Assembly: GCA_965220095.1 (NCBI GenBank)
Contig: CBDCPD010000001.1
Location: 20,700 to 84,699 of the forward strand
DNA: 64,000 nucleotides
Direction of reading: 5' to 3'
Source: Dehalococcoidia bacterium
GTDB taxonomy: Bacteria; Chloroflexota; Dehalococcoidia; Lucifugimonadales; UBA3495
The position numbers and the translations under genes are program-made. The number at the start of each line of letters is the position of its first letter. Position 1 is the stretch's first letter. Shown in pieces: positions 6,811 to 34,102 of this stretch. Under the pieces are notes generated by a model. The model did no database searches, was not told the DNA's origin, and was given only the letters and a program-made list of their open reading frames with translations.

Positions 6811-9477
6811 ATGAGAAACAAAGCGAGAAAGCACATCTGGCCGGTTTCGCTGGCGATGTCGCTGGCGTTGGTTGGGGTGCTGGCCGTTGTGGCCCTGGCC
6901 CTGGCTGGCTCCAACACCGCTCAGGCCCATGGCCCATGTGACCTCAGCACCATGACGGTGCCGCAGTTCGTGGAATGCGTGGCCATGGGGGGCGACGCTA
7001 CGCATACCCACGAAACCGACCCCGCCCCCGTCACGACCGCTACCGGAGACATGATTAAATCCGACAGCAACAGCGGCGGCGGCGCTCCCGAATTCCAGGT
7101 GAAGATTGAATCACTGCCCAGGAGGTTGGCGGTGGGCAGCTCCATCGTGCTGTACCTGGAGGACGACTACCAGAAGCCTGCAACGATACCGGCCAGCTCG
7201 GTATACTTCGTGGCGACCCCGCCTACCGAAGAAACCGGCAGCGGCTCCCGGGTGTACACCACCATTGCGCCGAAAATCGACACGGGCGCTTACTTTGATG
7301 CTGACAAAAGTGACATCAGCATCCGGGTTTTCATCCCCGATATGTGCACCTCCTCCACTGATGATTGCCAAGGTCAAAACGGCGTCGATGCCGGTCAAAC
7401 CCTGACGATGGTGGTTGAGGACACTTCCGGCATCAAGAATCCGACGGAAGCCGGGTCGCACAGCGCGGCGTTTGCGATTCTGGACCCCACGGACAGCGTT
7501 CCAGGCCCGGACGCAGTCGACAAGGACTATGAGCTGCTAACCGTAGCAAAGGTCAAGTTGTCGGACGTGAACAACAGTCGTGGCTACGAGTTGGTCGTGA
7601 TTGGCTCCGGCTACAACGACGGCACCACGGCCACCGCGTACACGTTGGCCATGCCCACCGCCGCCCAGTGGTGGGATTCGCTGGACTGCGCAGAGATGAT
7701 AACAGCCGTAGGCATGACCCCCAGTGGCGTCAAAGCAATCGATGACGCCAACGTCTACTGCGAGCTGTACGTCGATTTGGACGAATCCCAGAAGGAGAGG
7801 GTGCGGACATTACGTACCGATCTCTCGGCCGGATTCAAGCTCGGAATGAACGGCTGTGACGTGGTCGTCGCCAACGGCACCGCCATCGGTACCGCCATCG
7901 TCGGCAAAGACGACACTGCGGCCATACCCGTTACGGTAACCGTGCCCATCTTCAAGCCCGGCAAGGTCAACTATATCTGCGTATCCGATGGCGAAAGCCG
8001 CGGCTCCGGGTCCGATGTGGAAATCTTCGAGCTGGAGGATTCCATCCGGGTGATTCCTACTGAGGTAAACGCCGGCGACACCGTAACCCTGTTCGCCCAG
8101 GACTTCCAGGGGAGAGACAGTTTCACCGAGCTGAAGCTGGGTGGTGTGACGGTGTATCCGTCGGAAGACGAAGAATATGAAGACCTCGATCTTCAGCGAG
8201 CCGGCATTGGGAATGACGGCTCAGCTACCATTACCTTCGTGATGCCGCCCACCATCGGTGGCAACCCCATCAAGGGCACTATCCAGGTAAAGGGCACATG
8301 GGGCGGCAAGAAGGGACCCAACGCCGCCACCAAGATAACGGTAAAGCCGGCTGGTCTCACCCTTACCAAGACCGAAGCCAGGGCCAACGAGAGCATTACC
8401 ATCCAGGGCTCCGGCTTCAGCAACACCAGCGTGGTCAAACCCGAGAAGATAACCATCGACGATGTTCCCCTGATGGTCGATGCCGACTCCCTGCGGGATG
8501 ACGTGGTGAAGATATCCAACGGGGGGCAGTTCGTGGCCACGATATACCTCTGGCCCGAAGACAGCACCACCAACCCGGCCCTTGTCACCGGCACGCACAT
8601 CATCCGCGTGGAAGACGAGGACGGCTTCGTTGGCTCCACCAACCTCGCCATCATCGAACCCACGATTACCGTGGTGCCACTGGTGGCCGGCCCCCGGGAC
8701 ATCGTGGTCATCAGTGGTGAAAACTTCCCCGTGGACAACGTGGAAGGCGGCGCCGTTAACGCGGTAACTATTACCGTCAACGACAGCCGCGAGCGGACCT
8801 ACAGCGAGATTCCCGACGGCTCGGGCCGCTTCACGGTTGAGCACCGGGTTTCCTCCAACGTGGCGATCCCGTCCGTGGCTACCATCAAGGCAACCTACGG
8901 CACCGAGATAACCAAGACCGGCAGCTTCGATGTGCCGGAGGCCATTATCACCGTGGAGCCGGCCCAGGCTGCCCCCGGTGACAGCCTCACCCTCTCCGTT
9001 GGTGGTATGCCCGTCTATGCTTCCGTGGACAGCATCACCATCGGTGGCCGCGAAGCCCTGGGGAACCGCAATTTCAACACCGACCGCGAGGGCACGGTAA
9101 CGGCCGAGGGCATCGTGGTGCCAGGTTTGGACCCAGGTATTTTCTCGGTCCAACTGGAGGTCAACGACATCGTGGCCATTGGTCAGGTGGAAGTTGTCTC
9201 CGAAGGCCCGACCGGCCTGGCCAACCCGCTGCCCGCCGCCATGGAGGCGATAGGCGACGAGCTGGTGCGCGTGTTCTACTTCAACGGCGTGGACAAAACC
9301 TGGAGTTTCTTTGACCCCAGGCCAGAGTTCGACGGCCTGAACACGCTGACCGAAATGGTCAGCGGCCAGCCCTACTGGATTCTCGTTTCCGAGGATGTGG
9401 ATGATGTTGTTCTGAACAACAAGACTCGGAACCTGACCTGCGTGGGCGGCGACTGCTGGAACCAGTTGGTTTGGTAA
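6811..9477 (+). CDS. Secreted surface protein with IPT/TIG-like beta-sandwich repeats
   Basis: GGAG at 6798-6801 precedes ATG 6811 (the ORF track starts at TTG 6802). Signal peptide MRNKARKHIWPVSLAMSLALVGVLAVVALALAGSNTAQA. Recurrent motifs ITIQGSGFSN, VVISGENFPVDN and LTLSVGGMPV. Confidence 0.75.
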   Translation: MRNKARKHIWPVSLAMSLALVGVLAVVALALAGSNTAQAHGPCDLSTMTVPQFVECVAMGGDATHTHETDPAPVTTATGDMIKSDSNSGGGAPEFQVKIESLPRRLAVGSSIVLYLEDDYQKPATIPASSVYFVATPPTEETGSGSRVYTTIAPKIDTGAYFDADKSDISIRVFIPDMCTSSTDDCQGQNGVDAGQTLTMVVEDTSGIKNPTEAGSHSAAFAILDPTDSVPGPDAVDKDYELLTVAKVKLSDVNNSRGYELVVIGSGYNDGTTATAYTLAMPTAAQWWDSLDCAEMITAVGMTPSGVKAIDDANVYCELYVDLDESQKERVRTLRTDLSAGFKLGMNGCDVVVANGTAIGTAIVGKDDTAAIPVTVTVPIFKPGKVNYICVSDGESRGSGSDVEIFELEDSIRVIPTEVNAGDTVTLFAQDFQGRDSFTELKLGGVTVYPSEDEEYEDLDLQRAGIGNDGSATITFVMPPTIGGNPIKGTIQVKGTWGGKKGPNAATKITVKPAGLTLTKTEARANESITIQGSGFSNTSVVKPEKITIDDVPLMVDADSLRDDVVKISNGGQFVATIYLWPEDSTTNPALVTGTHIIRVEDEDGFVGSTNLAIIEPTITVVPLVAGPRDIVVISGENFPVDNVEGGAVNAVTITVNDSRERTYSEIPDGSGRFTVEHRVSSNVAIPSVATIKATYGTEITKTGSFDVPEAIITVEPAQAAPGDSLTLSVGGMPVYASVDSITIGGREALGNRNFNTDREGTVTAEGIVVPGLDPGIFSVQLEVNDIVAIGQVEVVSEGPTGLANPLPAAMEAIGDELVRVFYFNGVDKTWSFFDPRPEFDGLNTLTEMVSGQPYWILVSEDVDDVVLNNKTRNLTCVGGDCWNQLVW

Positions 9478-21444: not shown

Positions 21445-21472
21445 TGGCAGAGTTCATAGGCGAAGTCTGCCA
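21445..21472. repeat. 28-bp palindrome TGGCAGAGTT-N8-AAGTCTGCCA (family copy 4)
   Basis: Same arms as the sites at 31906, 31994 and 33024. Confidence 0.8.
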
Positions 21473-30683: not shown

Positions 30684-31102
30684 TTAACCTATTTCAGAGA
30701 TCATAGACAGGTTCTCACCGAGGAAGCACGCACGGTGCTCCACCGCCCCTCCCCCCAGAGGCAGCATCCCCACAGGCGCTGCCACCACCAGCCGGTTCAC
30801 CAGCTCCACCGCATCAGCCCGGGCAAGGTCAGACACCATGCACCGGACCACGTACGCCATCTGCCCCATGTGTTCCGAGACGAAATTGTTGCGCCAGACC
30901 TCAACTGGCCCATACCATACCCCAATTCCGAAACGCGCTCAAACACAGCCCCCTGCGTGTAATCGAAGTATCGGCAACCATCCCAAAAATCAATCGTGAA
31001 AACGTTGTGTCCACCCTCTTCACCAGGGAGCCGGCGACCGTCCGCGTTCTCCCACCATTCGGTGACGAACGCTGCAGCGTCAACTTGGTCGTGCATTGCC
31101 AT
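30684..31102 (-). pseudogene. Hypothetical gene split by one frameshift
   Basis: ORFs 30797-31102 and 30684-30869 join into one reading frame near 30870 (…FERVSELGYGMG / …WRNNFVSEHMGQMAYVV…). No family recognised. Confidence 0.3.
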
Positions 31103-31348
31103 TCAGCAGCTCGAATCCCCGTTTTGCAAAAACGATCTCGTGCTTCCTTTAGATTGTAGTGAAAACCGAGAAACCCCCGTTCTGCGATCACCAAAAAACC
31201 CTGACCAGGGCCGATATTGAGCACGAAAAGCCGCGTTTCACACCCCGGGCGACGCGTTTTCCGCGTCCTGACAGAACGGTCATCCAGGCAAGAGAACGGC
31301 GCCTCGAACCGGCGCCAGAAGACACGAAAAAGCTCGACGCGCCCCTCG

Positions 31349-31903
31349 CTACGGGACCGCATCCATGCTGTAGTCGCTGCCCACGATGGGCAAGTAAATC
31401 CGGAGCGTGACCTGCACGTTAGCGTGTCCTAACCACGAACTGACTATGTTCAGCGGAACACCACCGGAAACTAACCAATGCCGGGCTGCACTATGCCGCA
31501 GGCTATGAGCGCCGGCCCTACGTTTCCCGGTACCTGGCGACTCCTCGTCGAGACCTGCCCACTGGATGCCGTCACCAATGTGACGCAACGCCGTCCGCAT
31601 CGCGAGCGCCACCACCTTGTCCCGTGGCGAACGGTTCGCCGGCCAGTTGGTGAAGAGCTGCACCAAGTCCCGGTGCAACCGGACGGTTCTCGCCCGATGG
31701 CTCTTTGACTTCCGGACCAGCAACGTCGGTGGCTCGCCGGCGTAATCGAGATCTCGCCATTCGAGTTCGAGGACCTCGGAAACCCGCAGACCGGTGCGCC
31801 ACATGATGAGCACCGCGGTGCGCGCCTGATGTCGGTTATGAGCTGCCAGGGCGTCCAGCAGACGCTGAACCTGGTCGGCCGTCCAGTAATGAGGAACATC
31901 CAT
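31349..31903 (-). CDS. Short (184 aa) tyrosine recombinase, catalytic domain only
   Basis: R in RTGLRVSEVLEL, HSLRHSAARH, and LGHANVQVTLRIY (R-H-R-H-Y set). No N-terminal SAM-like domain. Confidence 0.8.
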   Translation of the reverse strand: MDVPHYWTADQVQRLLDALAAHNRHQARTAVLIMWRTGLRVSEVLELEWRDLDYAGEPPTLLVRKSKSHRARTVRLHRDLVQLFTNWPANRSPRDKVVALAMRTALRHIGDGIQWAGLDEESPGTGKRRAGAHSLRHSAARHWLVSGGVPLNIVSSWLGHANVQVTLRIYLPIVGSDYSMDAVP

Positions 31904-31905
31904 AG

Positions 31906-31934
31906 TGGCAGATTACACCAAACGAAGTCTGCCA
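31906..31934. repeat. 29-bp palindrome TGGCAGATTA-N9-GAAGTCTGCCA, 2 nt upstream of the recombinase start codon
   Basis: Arms related to the sites at 31994, 33024 and 21445. Confidence 0.75.
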
Positions 31935-31993
31935 GAAAAGGCCGTGCTGTCATCCTGTTCCCCGAACGACGATACCCACCGGGCAGTCAAAAG

Positions 31994-32020
31994 TGGCAGA
32001 GTTGGGGGCAAAGTCTGCCA
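31994..32020. repeat. Palindromic site GTGGCAGAGTT-GGGGGC-AAAGTCTGCCA (11-6-11 layout)
   Basis: Seen directly. Lies upstream of the Uma2 gene. Confidence 0.8.
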
Positions 32021-32256
32021 ACCACAGACCATCAGTCTTCGCCAAGCAATCTGCCTACCACACCATCGTCCATCAACGGATGTCCTGGCGCATGTCACAC
32101 AAGGCATCTGCACGGGAGACCGTTCCGCCCAGCCTCATCCTGCCGCCCGCGGCCGAATAACCCTCGGCCCGACCCGGGCCAACAAGAGTTATAATCCGAC
32201 GTATCAACCAGGCGCGTCCCCGACCGGCTAACACGCTAACCCTCACGAGGTTCAGC

Positions 32257-32964
32257 ATGACCACTGCCAAGACACCCAACCCTCAAAGCCGTTTCCGGCT
32301 TCCAGATCCGCCTCCGAGAGAACCGGACGAGATGACCGCCTTCGACCATGTCTACAAGCACGGCAACAACCGCTACCTAGCCATCCACCTCGGCAACCAA
32401 GACACAACCTTGGTCGTCGCCGACCGCTGGATAATCGCTCACCCTGACGCCGACCGGTCAAGAGCACGCCGGCCCGACCTGCTCATCGCCTTCGACGTGG
32501 ACCCCGCGGCTTACCACGCCTCCAACGGTTACATCGTCTCCGAACAGGGCAAGCCGCCCGACTTCGTCCTCGAAGTCGCCTCCGAGAGCACCGGAGCCAC
32601 CGACACCGGCGCCAAGCGCCAGGACTACGCCGCCCTAGGCATCTCCGAATACTGGCGCTTCGACGAAACCGGACAGCACCACGGCGTTCGCCTCGCCGGC
32701 GACCAGATTGTCGGCGACCGATACCGACCTATCACCATCGAGCAACTGCCCGACGGCACCCTGCAGGGCTACAGCCCTGCGCTCAACCTATTCCTGCACT
32801 GGCAGGACGGCCAGCTACTCTGGATCGACCCAGCGACGCAGCAGCCCATCCTCACCTACGAGGACCAGCTATCCCGCGCCGAACAGGCCGAAGCCCGCGC
32901 CCAGCAGGCCGCTGCCCGCATCAGCGAGCTCGAGAACGAAGTCCGCCGCCTCCGGGGACAATAA
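32257..32964 (+). CDS. Uma2-family (DUF820, PD-(D/E)xK) endonuclease
   Basis: RPDLLIAFDV...KPPDFVLEVASEST...KRQDYAALGISEYWRFD, plus a C-terminal coiled-coil AEARAQQAAARISELENEVRRL. Confidence 0.8.
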   Translation: MTTAKTPNPQSRFRLPDPPPREPDEMTAFDHVYKHGNNRYLAIHLGNQDTTLVVADRWIIAHPDADRSRARRPDLLIAFDVDPAAYHASNGYIVSEQGKPPDFVLEVASESTGATDTGAKRQDYAALGISEYWRFDETGQHHGVRLAGDQIVGDRYRPITIEQLPDGTLQGYSPALNLFLHWQDGQLLWIDPATQQPILTYEDQLSRAEQAEARAQQAAARISELENEVRRLRGQ

Positions 32965-33023
32965 CCCAGAGCATCGAATCCGACTCGACAGCTGGAGGCG
33001 TTGGTCGACCAGCGCCCCCCAAG

Positions 33024-33050
33024 TGGCAGAGTTGTGCGCAAACTCTGCCG
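33024..33050. repeat. Palindromic site GTGGCAGAGTT-GTGCGC-AAACTCTGCCG (11-6-11 layout)
   Basis: Perfect 9-bp arms GGCAGAGTT/AACTCTGCC. Lies 59 nt downstream of the Uma2 stop. Confidence 0.8.
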
Positions 33051-33230
33051 CCAAGCCCGACCCCACCAGATCCCCCGACTTTTCCTCACCGTAGAGCCTT
33101 GGATGACCCAGTTCCTCGAATATCTCACCAGCGCGCCGAGCCACGTTGCGTAGAGCCGAAGGACATTACACCAACGAACACAATGTCAAAAACGTGACGC
33201 CCAACACATTGATGAGAGGCCAATTTCGCG

Positions 33231-34102
33231 TAGGGGGTGTCGTCAAAAGAGTTTGCTCCAGATCATCACTGCCCGGAGCTGGCAGATGGCCAAATACGAC
33301 GCCGTTCTCTTGGCATAGCGGGTCGCCACCCCGTGCCACTGCTTGAATTCCAGGAATCCGTTCTCCACCAGGTGCCGCAGCTTGTACAGCGCCCGGTCAT
33401 AGTCCCGCTTTTCTCTCCGGGTGCTTTTGGGCGGTATCACCGGGTCCATTCCCAATTCCCGGACGGTGGCTATGATTTCATTGGTGTCATAGGCTTTGTC
33501 AGCCAGCAGGCACTCCGCTGCTATGCCCTCAATCAGAGGCAAAGCCTGGGAGCAGTCGGCAAACGTACCCTCGGTCACCGCCAGCCTTACCGGCATTCCG
33601 TGGGAATCCACCGCCAGGTGCAGCTTGCTGTTCAGCCCCCTTTTGTGCGGGCAATGGACTGATTTCCGCCCCGGGCGCCGGCGCTGTGGGGATGGGCCTT
33701 GATATAGCTGGCGTCTATCATCAGCCACTCGAAATCAGGGTCATCAATCACCGCCTCCAACAGTCCGGCCCACACGCCCCGGTCCCGCCAGCGGCAGAAG
33801 CGGCGGTGGGTGTTCTTACTATCTCCGTAGTCCGGGGGCAAATCTCGCCAAGGAGCGCCGGTGCGCAGAATCCAGCACACGGCGTCAATAAACCGCCGGT
33901 TGTCCCCGTGTCGTGGCACGGGGCAGGCTCTGGGCCGGTCGGCCCCGCTTGCCCTCTCCCCCAGGCAAATGCGGCCTCAACCGCTCCCAAACCGCATCGG
34001 TCATATCGTGGCGCCGGTGCGCTACCGTCATACCCCCACCTTCCACACTCTCCCCATTTCCAACAATTTACCACCCTACCGCCATTTTGACGACACCCCC
34101 TA
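33231..34102 (-). mobile_element. IS5-family (IS427-group-like) insertion sequence, 872 bp
   Basis: Perfect 18-bp terminal inverted repeats TAGGGGGTGTCGTCAAAA (33231-33248) and TTTTGACGACACCCCCTA (34085-34102). TA on both flanks is a possible target duplication. A second, truncated copy lies at 46816-47141. Confidence 0.85.
33243..34004 (-). CDS. IS5/IS427-type transposase (orfA-orfB, -1 frameshift)
   Basis: orfA (RRFIDAVCWILRTGAPWRDLP) ends at ...ARTKGG* and orfB continues as ...KRGLNSKLHLAVD after a -1 slip on ACAAAAGGGGG (~33640). The DDE C-terminus is ADKAYD...LVENGFLEFKQWHGVATRY. The first ~25 codons from ATG 34004 (MTDAVWERLRPHLPGGEGKRGRP) are in yet another frame, so this copy may be defective. 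Confidence 0.7.

Follow-up and report, generated by a model that had tools for sequence, protein, structure and literature searches.

The dif (pdif) modules of Acinetobacter Rep_3/OrfX plasmids are accessory blocks, toxin-antitoxin genes among them, that are bounded by sites of ~27-28 bp with inverted arms. The spacers of these sites define site classes, and rearrangements involve identical or near-identical spacers (PMC13141974, PMC6449649). We describe here a locus in a 64,000-nucleotide stretch of DNA (the window) from a sponge-type Dehalococcoidia bacterium in which rec1, a gene coding for a tyrosine recombinase of 184 amino acids (aa), stands beside palindromes, two of which flank a gene of the Uma2 family. 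We read this locus as belonging to a lox-like or dif-module-like module-exchange system run by the dedicated mini-recombinase, a reading to which we give a probability of roughly 0.6. The system works most like the Acinetobacter dif modules and yet fails their defining features.

The likeness to dif modules is that inverted-arm sites bound accessory blocks and that one block is found in different contexts, ending at sites, as observed here for the Uma2 block and for a block coding for the Shango defence system. However, there are several important differences. The dif modules have asymmetric 11-bp C and D arms around a 6-bp spacer, whereas the sites described here have like arms and a 7-bp centre. 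A second difference is that recombination of dif modules is carried out by the host XerC/XerD proteins, whereas here a dedicated 184-aa recombinase is encoded beside the sites. Neighbouring dif sites also alternate in orientation, whereas the sites around the Uma2 block appear to be direct, and the host and cargo differ as well, with a sponge-type Dehalococcoidia and mainly phage-defence genes observed here.

Integrons resemble this locus in that the recombinase gene is read away from a primary site, with cargo beyond that site that is closed by a second one. There are also orphan sites elsewhere, like the clusters of attC sites lacking integron-integrases (CALINs), and some integron cargo has defence functions (10.1101/2024.07.02.601719). 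In contrast to integron integrases, rec1 lacks the IntI-specific insertion and scores far under the cut-offs of the integron-integrase models (48.5 bits versus 265 for TIGR02249 and 34.9 versus 435 for NF011946). The attC sites are 55-140 nucleotides (nt) long and folded from a single strand, whereas those described here are 27-bp double-strand palindromes with a 9-11-bp stem. Likewise, integrons hold co-oriented cassette arrays, whereas here there are at most one or two blocks, of mixed orientation, that can be multigene and reach 8-10 kb.

The closest solved structures and sequence families are those of the single-Xer systems and Cre/loxP (XerH/difH, XerS/difSL, archaeal XerA/dif and P1 Cre), where one protein acts on near-identical inverted arms around a 6-8-bp centre and where, in the case of cre/loxP, the site also lies beside the gene. 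These proteins are 260-360 aa long and have an N-terminal core-binding domain that rec1 does not have, and they use one site per genome whereas tens are observed here. FimB and FimE, at ~200 aa, are essentially a catalytic domain alone and their genes lie beside the target sites, but their similarity to rec1 is very weak, the Uma2 sites appear direct rather than inverted, and each segment holds genes, over 1-10 kb, and not a promoter. Finally, the gene for TnpI of Tn4430 is preceded by a ~120-bp composite site with a core crossover palindrome and accessory repeats nearer the gene. TnpI belongs to a Tn3-family transposon and serves cointegrate resolution, whereas here the sites are dispersed and there is no transposase of the Tn3 type. 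Literature searches found no description of the recombinase family reported here or of its sites.

The mini-recombinase and the palindromes beside it

The window lies on the 124-kb contig C2 of a 5.17-Mb genome (G000) that is assembled in seven contigs, C1-C7, and that has a G+C content of 61%, tiny contigs C6 and C7 aside. G018 and G031 denote other genomes, and L numbers denote related loci or contigs (e.g. L027, L080). Upon re-reading the sequence, the palindromes, the Uma2 gene and the 184-aa recombinase gene were all observed at the positions given in a preliminary description of this DNA (Table 1). The palindromes are thus real, but the 11-6-11 layout reported for them is off by one base on one arm, as a 10-7-10 layout with the symmetric consensus R-TGGCAGASTT-N7-AASTCTGCCA-Y fits 29 genomic sites. 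With both arms alike and a centre of 7 bp, the XerC/XerD dif-type geometry that had been claimed does not hold. The pattern GGCAGASTT-N4-10-AASTCTGCC matches three times in the window (sites B and C and a solitary site) versus 0.00 matches expected from 100 shuffles. Chance does not explain the palindromes A, B and C. A genome-wide search for the motif, as proposed in the preliminary description, returned 20 exact matches to this pattern, with none for a reversed-pattern control, and ~32 sites if one mismatch per arm is allowed. The same description had raised the alternative of a REP-like motif that is abundant irrespective of recombinase genes. This is half borne out, since the ~32 copies are mostly away from intact recombinase genes, but they do not behave like REP elements because ~12 of them adjoin recombinase-gene remnants and because sites coincide with segment boundaries.

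Nearly all of the genomic sites are equal in length, all are intergenic, and half of them are on the small contigs C2-C5, which total 0.8 Mb. The 7-bp centre is without conservation overall and falls into classes. Centre GCTAATG (site1) is present at ~10 sites in this genome, and a centre of the form T.....A with a variable middle (site2) is always ~95 bp from a site1, the two making up a conserved doublet of ~122 bp. A third class, TGAACGG (site3), has five sites and a fourth, TGSNNCA-like, adjoins rec1 genes. Identical centre classes recur in other genomes of the genus, as expected of a system that needs homology between centres. We also considered whether the G and C variants of the arm (position 7 of the GGCAGASTT core) belong to two different binding partners, as with XerC and XerD, and rejected this as all four combinations occur without pattern.

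The preliminary description of rec1 as coding for a catalytic domain only is confirmed. PF00589 is the sole family match (residues 8-171, 82.6 bits versus a cut-off of 27.1), there is no core-binding domain, and the AlphaFold model shows a single domain with a predicted local distance difference test (pLDDT) score of 88. The best PDB matches of this model are the catalytic domains of XerA, XerH and IntI4, and the model also spans the isolated catalytic-domain constructs of the P2 and HP1 integrases almost end to end. Besides the PF00589 fold, the protein has the R, D/E, K, H-x-x-R, H/W and Y residues of the tyrosine recombinase superfamily. Specifically, R40, E43, K67, H133, R136 and H160 are invariant, and Y170 is present in at least 90%, in an alignment of 25 sequences that extends to 37% identity, and the set of seven catalytic residues persists from clade to clade. 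Full-length matches to rec1 number more than 400 among metagenome proteins, with lengths of 184-189 aa for most of the 120 that were listed, indicating that rec1 is not a fragment; a look-up of the exact protein gave no identical record. NCBIfam Xer models score 56-63 bits versus cut-offs of 220-335 and align only at model positions ~93-270, and the FimB/FimE-type model NF007371 gives a weak end-to-end alignment (33.6 bits versus a cut-off of 222). Judged by its sequence, rec1 is nearest to the Xer families, within the superfamily but in none of the named families. The genome has only two intact genes of this recombinase family. A rec1 paralogue is present on C4 and a canonical Xer with a core-binding domain is encoded on C1.

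The tie between enzyme and sites is evident from a ~670-bp block that is conserved in 13 or more genomes and metagenome contigs and that consists of the distal site, ~60 nt, the proximal variant site, the ATG, the recombinase gene and its stop codon. Homology among rec1 loci starts at the outer edge of the distal site and stops just past the stop codon, with unrelated DNA on both flanks, and the C4 paralogue exhibits the same site-site-gene pattern. In 13 related loci the proximal site (GGCAGASTT-N8-10-TAnTCTGCC) has a position of -29 to -31 relative to the start codon. A sister clade of recombinases (~63% identity) retains the two-site layout and a 9-7-9 core spacing, and its arms are GGGAACTTT/AAAGTTCCC where the rec1 clade has GGCAGAGTT; as read, they are ATGGGAACTTT...AAAGTTCCCAT. 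Sites of the sister-clade type are absent from all 54 genomes that were compared for the genus of the rec1 host. Still other palindromes, of the TTGCGAC type, accompany more distant recombinases at ~40% identity. The third clade, rec2, is ~50% identical and lies directly beside site3 (centre CCGTTCA) in G018, G031 and one sponge metagenome contig, and homology among four rec2 loci stops at the outer edge of site3. Because the arms change with the protein clade while geometry and position stay fixed, the palindromes are very probably the recombinase's own (cognate) sites. This is in line with the preliminary description, which had assigned them to the neighbouring mini-recombinase. Co-occurrence within the genus was scored in 20 genomes with sites and 17 without, and a rec1-like gene is present in 8 of the former and 1 of the latter.

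The preliminary description had also suggested an autoregulated system. Given that the palindrome at the start codon is conserved across genomes, autoregulation is plausible. A sigma-70 promoter scan of 31200-33300 found no promoter; our guess is that a promoter giving a leaderless mRNA overlaps site A. We also considered the ~70 bp separating the upstream pair of sites as an invertible promoter and rejected this, as the centres are unrelated.

No Rfam family was found on the sites or in three related loci. A scan of viral contigs for the site gave four matches, which is about chance level by a rough estimate, and thus no link to phages is indicated. Matches in metagenome contigs were mostly single, from unrelated habitats and chance-like, with only the sponge contigs L117, L120, L126 and L154 being informative.

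Segment borders at sites, the Uma2 block and other cargo

Self-BLAST of the whole genome shows that segments of repeated DNA end at these sites. Specifically, 22 distinct ends of high-scoring segment pairs lie within 8 bp of the 32 sites, on 16 of the sites. This compares with 4.1 ± 3.5 ends (maximum 21 in 1000 trials) when the sites were shifted by 100-3000 bp, a control that remains in the same repeat-rich neighbourhoods. A block of 8.3 kb that codes for Shango (SngA/B/C) is shared by C1 and C4 at 97% identity, and its start coincides exactly with a site3 in both. Beyond that site3 the cargo differs, with an MvdD-type ATP-grasp gene and a membrane protein at one locus and an unrelated gene and a transposase at the other, and past this differing cargo the same site1-bearing block returns at both loci. 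In other genomes, the outer edge of site2 (at least eight cases) or of site1 (at least three cases) is where repeats matching the G000 locus begin. In L034 one block (X) stops 1-2 nt short of a site3, and the homologous place in L036 lacks this site3. Roughly 12 of the 32 sites, these being site1/site2 doublets and their relatives, adjoin a remnant of 33 codons of a rec2-like gene (MPSRELPHYWTPEQV...).

The Uma2 gene is the single gene between sites B and C. This block recurs on C5 from site to site. The two copies start to match 4-5 nt to the left of the left-hand site and cease to match within the right arm of the right-hand one, and the DNA outside them is unrelated. On C5 it is flanked by a KAP-NTPase gene (PDC-S20) and by a type IIG restriction-modification gene, the latter matching other genomes only from its start codon onward. 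The genome has ~30 Uma2 paralogues, of which only the window gene and its 96%-identical C5 copy lie between sites. The preliminary description had likened this block to a dif-module cassette. A second copy in another context that ends at both sites agrees with this, although the block falls outside dif modules as strictly defined. The idea of the Uma2 cassette as the recombinase's special partner is not supported, since each genome has its own cargo upstream of the distal site.

Sites B and C and both C5 sites share the asymmetric left flank AAGT, and by this criterion the sites around Uma2 are direct repeats. With direct orientation, recombination would excise a 1030-bp circle and would not invert the segment. 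Immediately before site C there is a conserved stretch of ~40 nt (Table 1), relatives of which precede both sites of the C5 block and the second site of L027. It is probably non-coding because an indel breaks the reading frame, and sites of this class may include it as an extension or accessory element.

Besides Uma2, the site-bounded or site-adjoining cargo comprises complete SIR2-HerA and Shango systems (both in Table 1) and the MvdD-type ATP-grasp gene. HigBA-like toxin-antitoxin genes, and Abi-like and membrane proteins in relatives, were called from translations of open reading frames (ORFs) alone. The cargo is mostly phage-defence genes, indicating that the sites lie in defence islands. 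The orientation of cargo genes relative to the sites is mixed, and no cassette arrays beyond one or two units per locus were found.

The proposed mechanism and its alternatives

In the mechanism that we propose, very small tyrosine recombinases with only a catalytic domain would recombine at these palindromes. As the arms are identical, each 10-7-10 site should accommodate a single dimer. Pairing of two sites so occupied would be followed by strand exchange within the 7-bp centre, as with Cre/loxP or single-Xer/dif. The degenerate proximal site at the start codon would probably be accessory and shut off expression of the gene itself, and the canonical distal site, ~90 bp further out, would be the crossover point. 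Canonical sites scattered in accessory DNA rich in insertion sequences (IS) and defence genes would, where their centres match, let blocks join, duplicate and swap. Site B, Uma2 and site C would make up one such module, and a B by C exchange would release the 1030-bp circle and leave one hybrid site beside rec1. The sites, their conserved position beside the gene, the change of arms with enzyme clade, the retained catalytic residues and the segment borders at sites are directly observed. Binding, cleavage positions, autoregulation and present-day movement of modules by the window recombinase are inferred.

Several observations weigh against this mechanism. The rec1, rec2 and 2-kb repeat blocks (the latter described below) begin at a site and end after a stop codon without a second site, and a gene together with its operator region would look alike. 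There are two intact genes of the family for ~32 sites, most sites are far from an intact enzyme, many family members elsewhere are pseudogenes, and 12 of the 20 genus genomes with sites carry no rec1-like gene; many of the sites may thus be fossils. The centres of B and C differ at two of seven positions (GGGGGCA versus GTGCGCA). Such a mismatch between centres would hinder a complete B by C reaction in most tyrosine recombinase systems, and the Uma2 block may therefore be a fixed or slow-moving module. In the assembled sequences no excised or inverted form was seen, and no empty-site variant of the C5 Uma2 block turned up in the 54 genus genomes, in a search that was swamped by dozens of paralogues. 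Finally, the mechanism would call for a specific hold on a 10-bp arm by a protein that has no core-binding domain.

The alternative that survives best, which we still regard as unlikely, is that rec1 is an ordinary single-purpose enzyme, resolving plasmid or chromosome multimers or integrating a small element, with a site in its own promoter as in cre/loxP or ResD/rfsF. The other sites would then be fossils beside decayed genes, the conserved blocks would be gene and promoter units spread by IS or homologous recombination, and the Uma2 'cassette' would be a segmental duplication ending by chance at fossil sites. This would explain the rec2-like remnants at ~12 of the 32 sites, the conserved blocks that end at stop codons, and the finding of only two intact genes with many pseudogenes in other genomes. 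It is also congruent with the lack of cassette arrays beyond one or two units and with the window DNA around rec1 and Uma2, which is rich in IS5-family fragments. However, no recombinase remnant adjoins the sites where the Shango block starts and where the Uma2 block has its two ends, and differing cargo is observed between one same pair of flanking site-bearing blocks. The enrichment of segment borders at sites also holds against a control taken within the same repeat-rich neighbourhoods.

A much less probable alternative is that rec1 is a repressor with a recombinase fold that controls a small regulon of accessory genes through the palindromes as operators, with no exchange of DNA. Site A abuts the start codon and many sites are just upstream of genes, as operators would be, and there is a precedent in MrpR (YopR) of SPbeta, in which this fold became a pure DNA-binding repressor acting on a repeated element and four of the seven catalytic residues were lost (PMC10516654). 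In contrast to MrpR, which kept three of the seven, rec1 and all of its clades keep seven, and a pure repressor is therefore unlikely. Site C is also located 3' of Uma2 with no gene behind it, and operators would leave unexplained both the ends of duplicated segments at sites and the 12 genus genomes in which sites are present and the protein is not.

A Fim- or shufflon-type invertible switch, controlling expression of Uma2 or of other cargo, is more doubtful still. The protein is of FimB/FimE size with a weak end-to-end alignment to their model, and in locus L027 identical inverted sites flank rec1 with long inverted duplications ending there. Nevertheless, the model score is far under its cut-off, sites B and C and both C5 sites are co-oriented by their AAGT flank, cargo orientation is mixed, and L027 is at a contig end and may therefore be an assembly artefact. 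Last, the idea of chance hairpins or REP/REPIN-like selfish repeats without relation to the recombinase has the least probability, since, despite dispersed intergenic copies and a recurrent two-palindrome doublet of ~122 bp, REP/REPIN elements come as hundreds of repeats with a REP-associated tyrosine transposase (RAYT) of the HUH (Y1) type whereas here only ~32 copies are present in 5.2 Mb, concentrated on small contigs beside a PF00589 protein with no RAYT-type gene involved, the arms change with the recombinase clade, the distance to the start codon is fixed across genomes, and there are no Rfam matches.

The module-exchange reading can be extended, tentatively and at somewhat less than even odds. 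In this extension whole defence systems (Uma2, SIR2-HerA, Shango, toxin-antitoxin) would be shuffled in a self-contained manner between the chromosome and extrachromosomal replicons of sponge-associated SAR202/Dehalococcoidia. Centre classes would set which sites pair and the enzyme would repress itself at its start codon, in a system distinct from both integrons and Xer-dependent dif modules. If true, this would be a third tyrosine-recombinase route for moving gene modules besides those two, with a minimal enzyme and simple double-strand sites, and it would account for the reshuffling of defence islands in uncultured, ecologically important sponge symbionts. A 184-aa protein with a 27-bp site would be among the smallest complete site-specific recombination systems known, raising the issue of how DNA specificity arises without a core-binding domain and offering a possible compact tool for genome engineering. 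The clades with GGCAGAGTT, GGGAACTTT and TTGCGAC-type arms would then be candidate orthogonal enzyme-site pairs.

Neighbouring features and additional repeats

Table 1. Positions of the sites, genes and repeats discussed in the text. Positions without a contig prefix are those of the window.
Feature	Position	Strand	Description
rec1	31349-31903	minus	184-aa tyrosine recombinase, catalytic domain only; ATG at 31903-31901
Site A	31906-31934		Looser proximal variant TGGCAGATTACACCAAACGAAGTCTGCCA, TGGCAGA..N..TCTGCCA with longer centre; 2 nt from rec1 ATG
Site B	31994-32020		TGGCAGAGTT-GGGGGCA-AAGTCTGCCA, distal canonical 10-7-10; outer border of recombinase block, left border of Uma2 block
Site C	33024-33050		TGGCAGAGTT-GTGCGCA-AACTCTGCCG, canonical 10-7-10; right border of Uma2 block
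Uma2-family gene	32257-32964	plus	Restriction-endonuclease-like, 235 aa, PF05685, E = 1.7e-14
Conserved ~40-nt stretch	32985-33023	plus	GACAGCTGGAGGCGTTGGTCGACCAGCGCC..AAGT, immediately before site C
162-aa gene, frameshifted copy	30684-31102	minus	Downstream of rec1; no Pfam or NCBIfam family matches
Solitary site	21445-21472		TGGCAGAGTT-CATAGGCG-AAGTCTGCCA, 8-nt centre; between TnpB-like gene and secreted LRR/DUF1524 gene
Uma2 block and its second copy	C2:52689-53751, C5:20209-21271		97% identity, site to site
C5 neighbourhood	C5:18197-24101		Uma2, type IIG restriction-modification enzyme, KAP-NTPase (PDC-S20)
rec1 paralogue	C4:62454-63005		84% identity to rec1
Canonical Xer	C1:~113300-114200		With core-binding domain
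SIR2 + HerA	C1:204727-207346		Cargo
Shango SngA/B/C	C4:308684-314436		Cargo, complete
2-kb repeat, six copies	C1:207501-209467, C4:169953-171919, C4:315624-317583, C1:3562716-3564652, C1:4169774-4171582, C1:1747530-1748632		Site2-site1 doublet, rec2-like remnant, 510-aa ORF
Site1-side block, five copies	C1:324267-324340, C1:4147079-4147160, C4:304636-304717, C4:134940-135015, C5:89873-89950		~70-110 nt directly beside site1

The solitary site of the window was recovered in the window scan as a pattern match at 21446-21471. A twin of this variant at C3:16016 adjoins a remnant of the start of a recombinase gene. The frameshifted 162-aa gene downstream of rec1 is intact in the paralogous C4 locus (L080:7132-7620), and homologues of it, by DNA or protein, are downstream of rec1 in L032, L033, L035 and L038.

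The 2-kb repeat, whose six copies are 88-91% identical, contains the site2-site1 doublet, the 33-codon rec2-like remnant and an ORF of 510 aa (MNANPAYCDCERCEIDRERAP...) for which no Pfam family was found. A different block, of ~70-110 nt (CCATRCCAAGCGAAGG..ATGCGGACRAGTTGG..CATTACGTAACGGCTGTTG), is directly beside site1 in five loci and holds a palindrome, TTACGTAA, and a possible ORF of 16 codons (MRTSWAALRNGCW). The genes that follow this block differ by locus and include HigBA-like genes, a CxxCxxCC zinc protein and IS pieces. The block could be a leader, a small RNA or the site of another protein; no Rfam match was found in L077, which holds one of its five copies.

At the end of a contig of a Dehalococcoidia metagenome-assembled genome (L027:6000-11607, CBDHDY010000019.1), two identical inverted sites flank rec1 and 1.4 kb of further DNA. 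The DNA beyond each site is duplicated in inverted form over 1.6 kb or more, and the match between the copies breaks off at the sites. Either recombination produced this structure (as an inverted dimer) or the assembly folded back on itself.

Contigs C6 (3327 bp) and C7 (2236 bp) have a G+C content of 34-35% versus 61% elsewhere in the assembly, and they are probably contaminants or a foreign small replicon.

Two metagenome contigs, L016 and L017, are 98% identical and diverge at ~9230-9260, at the palindrome TTTTCGCCA-GT-GGCGAAAA. This breakpoint was considered as an exchange at a site of the family described here and was rejected, as the palindrome is a different one and lies near a serine recombinase gene. 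This gene (Resolvase) is on the unshared side of L016, ~250 bp from the palindrome, which may be a res-type site of another system.

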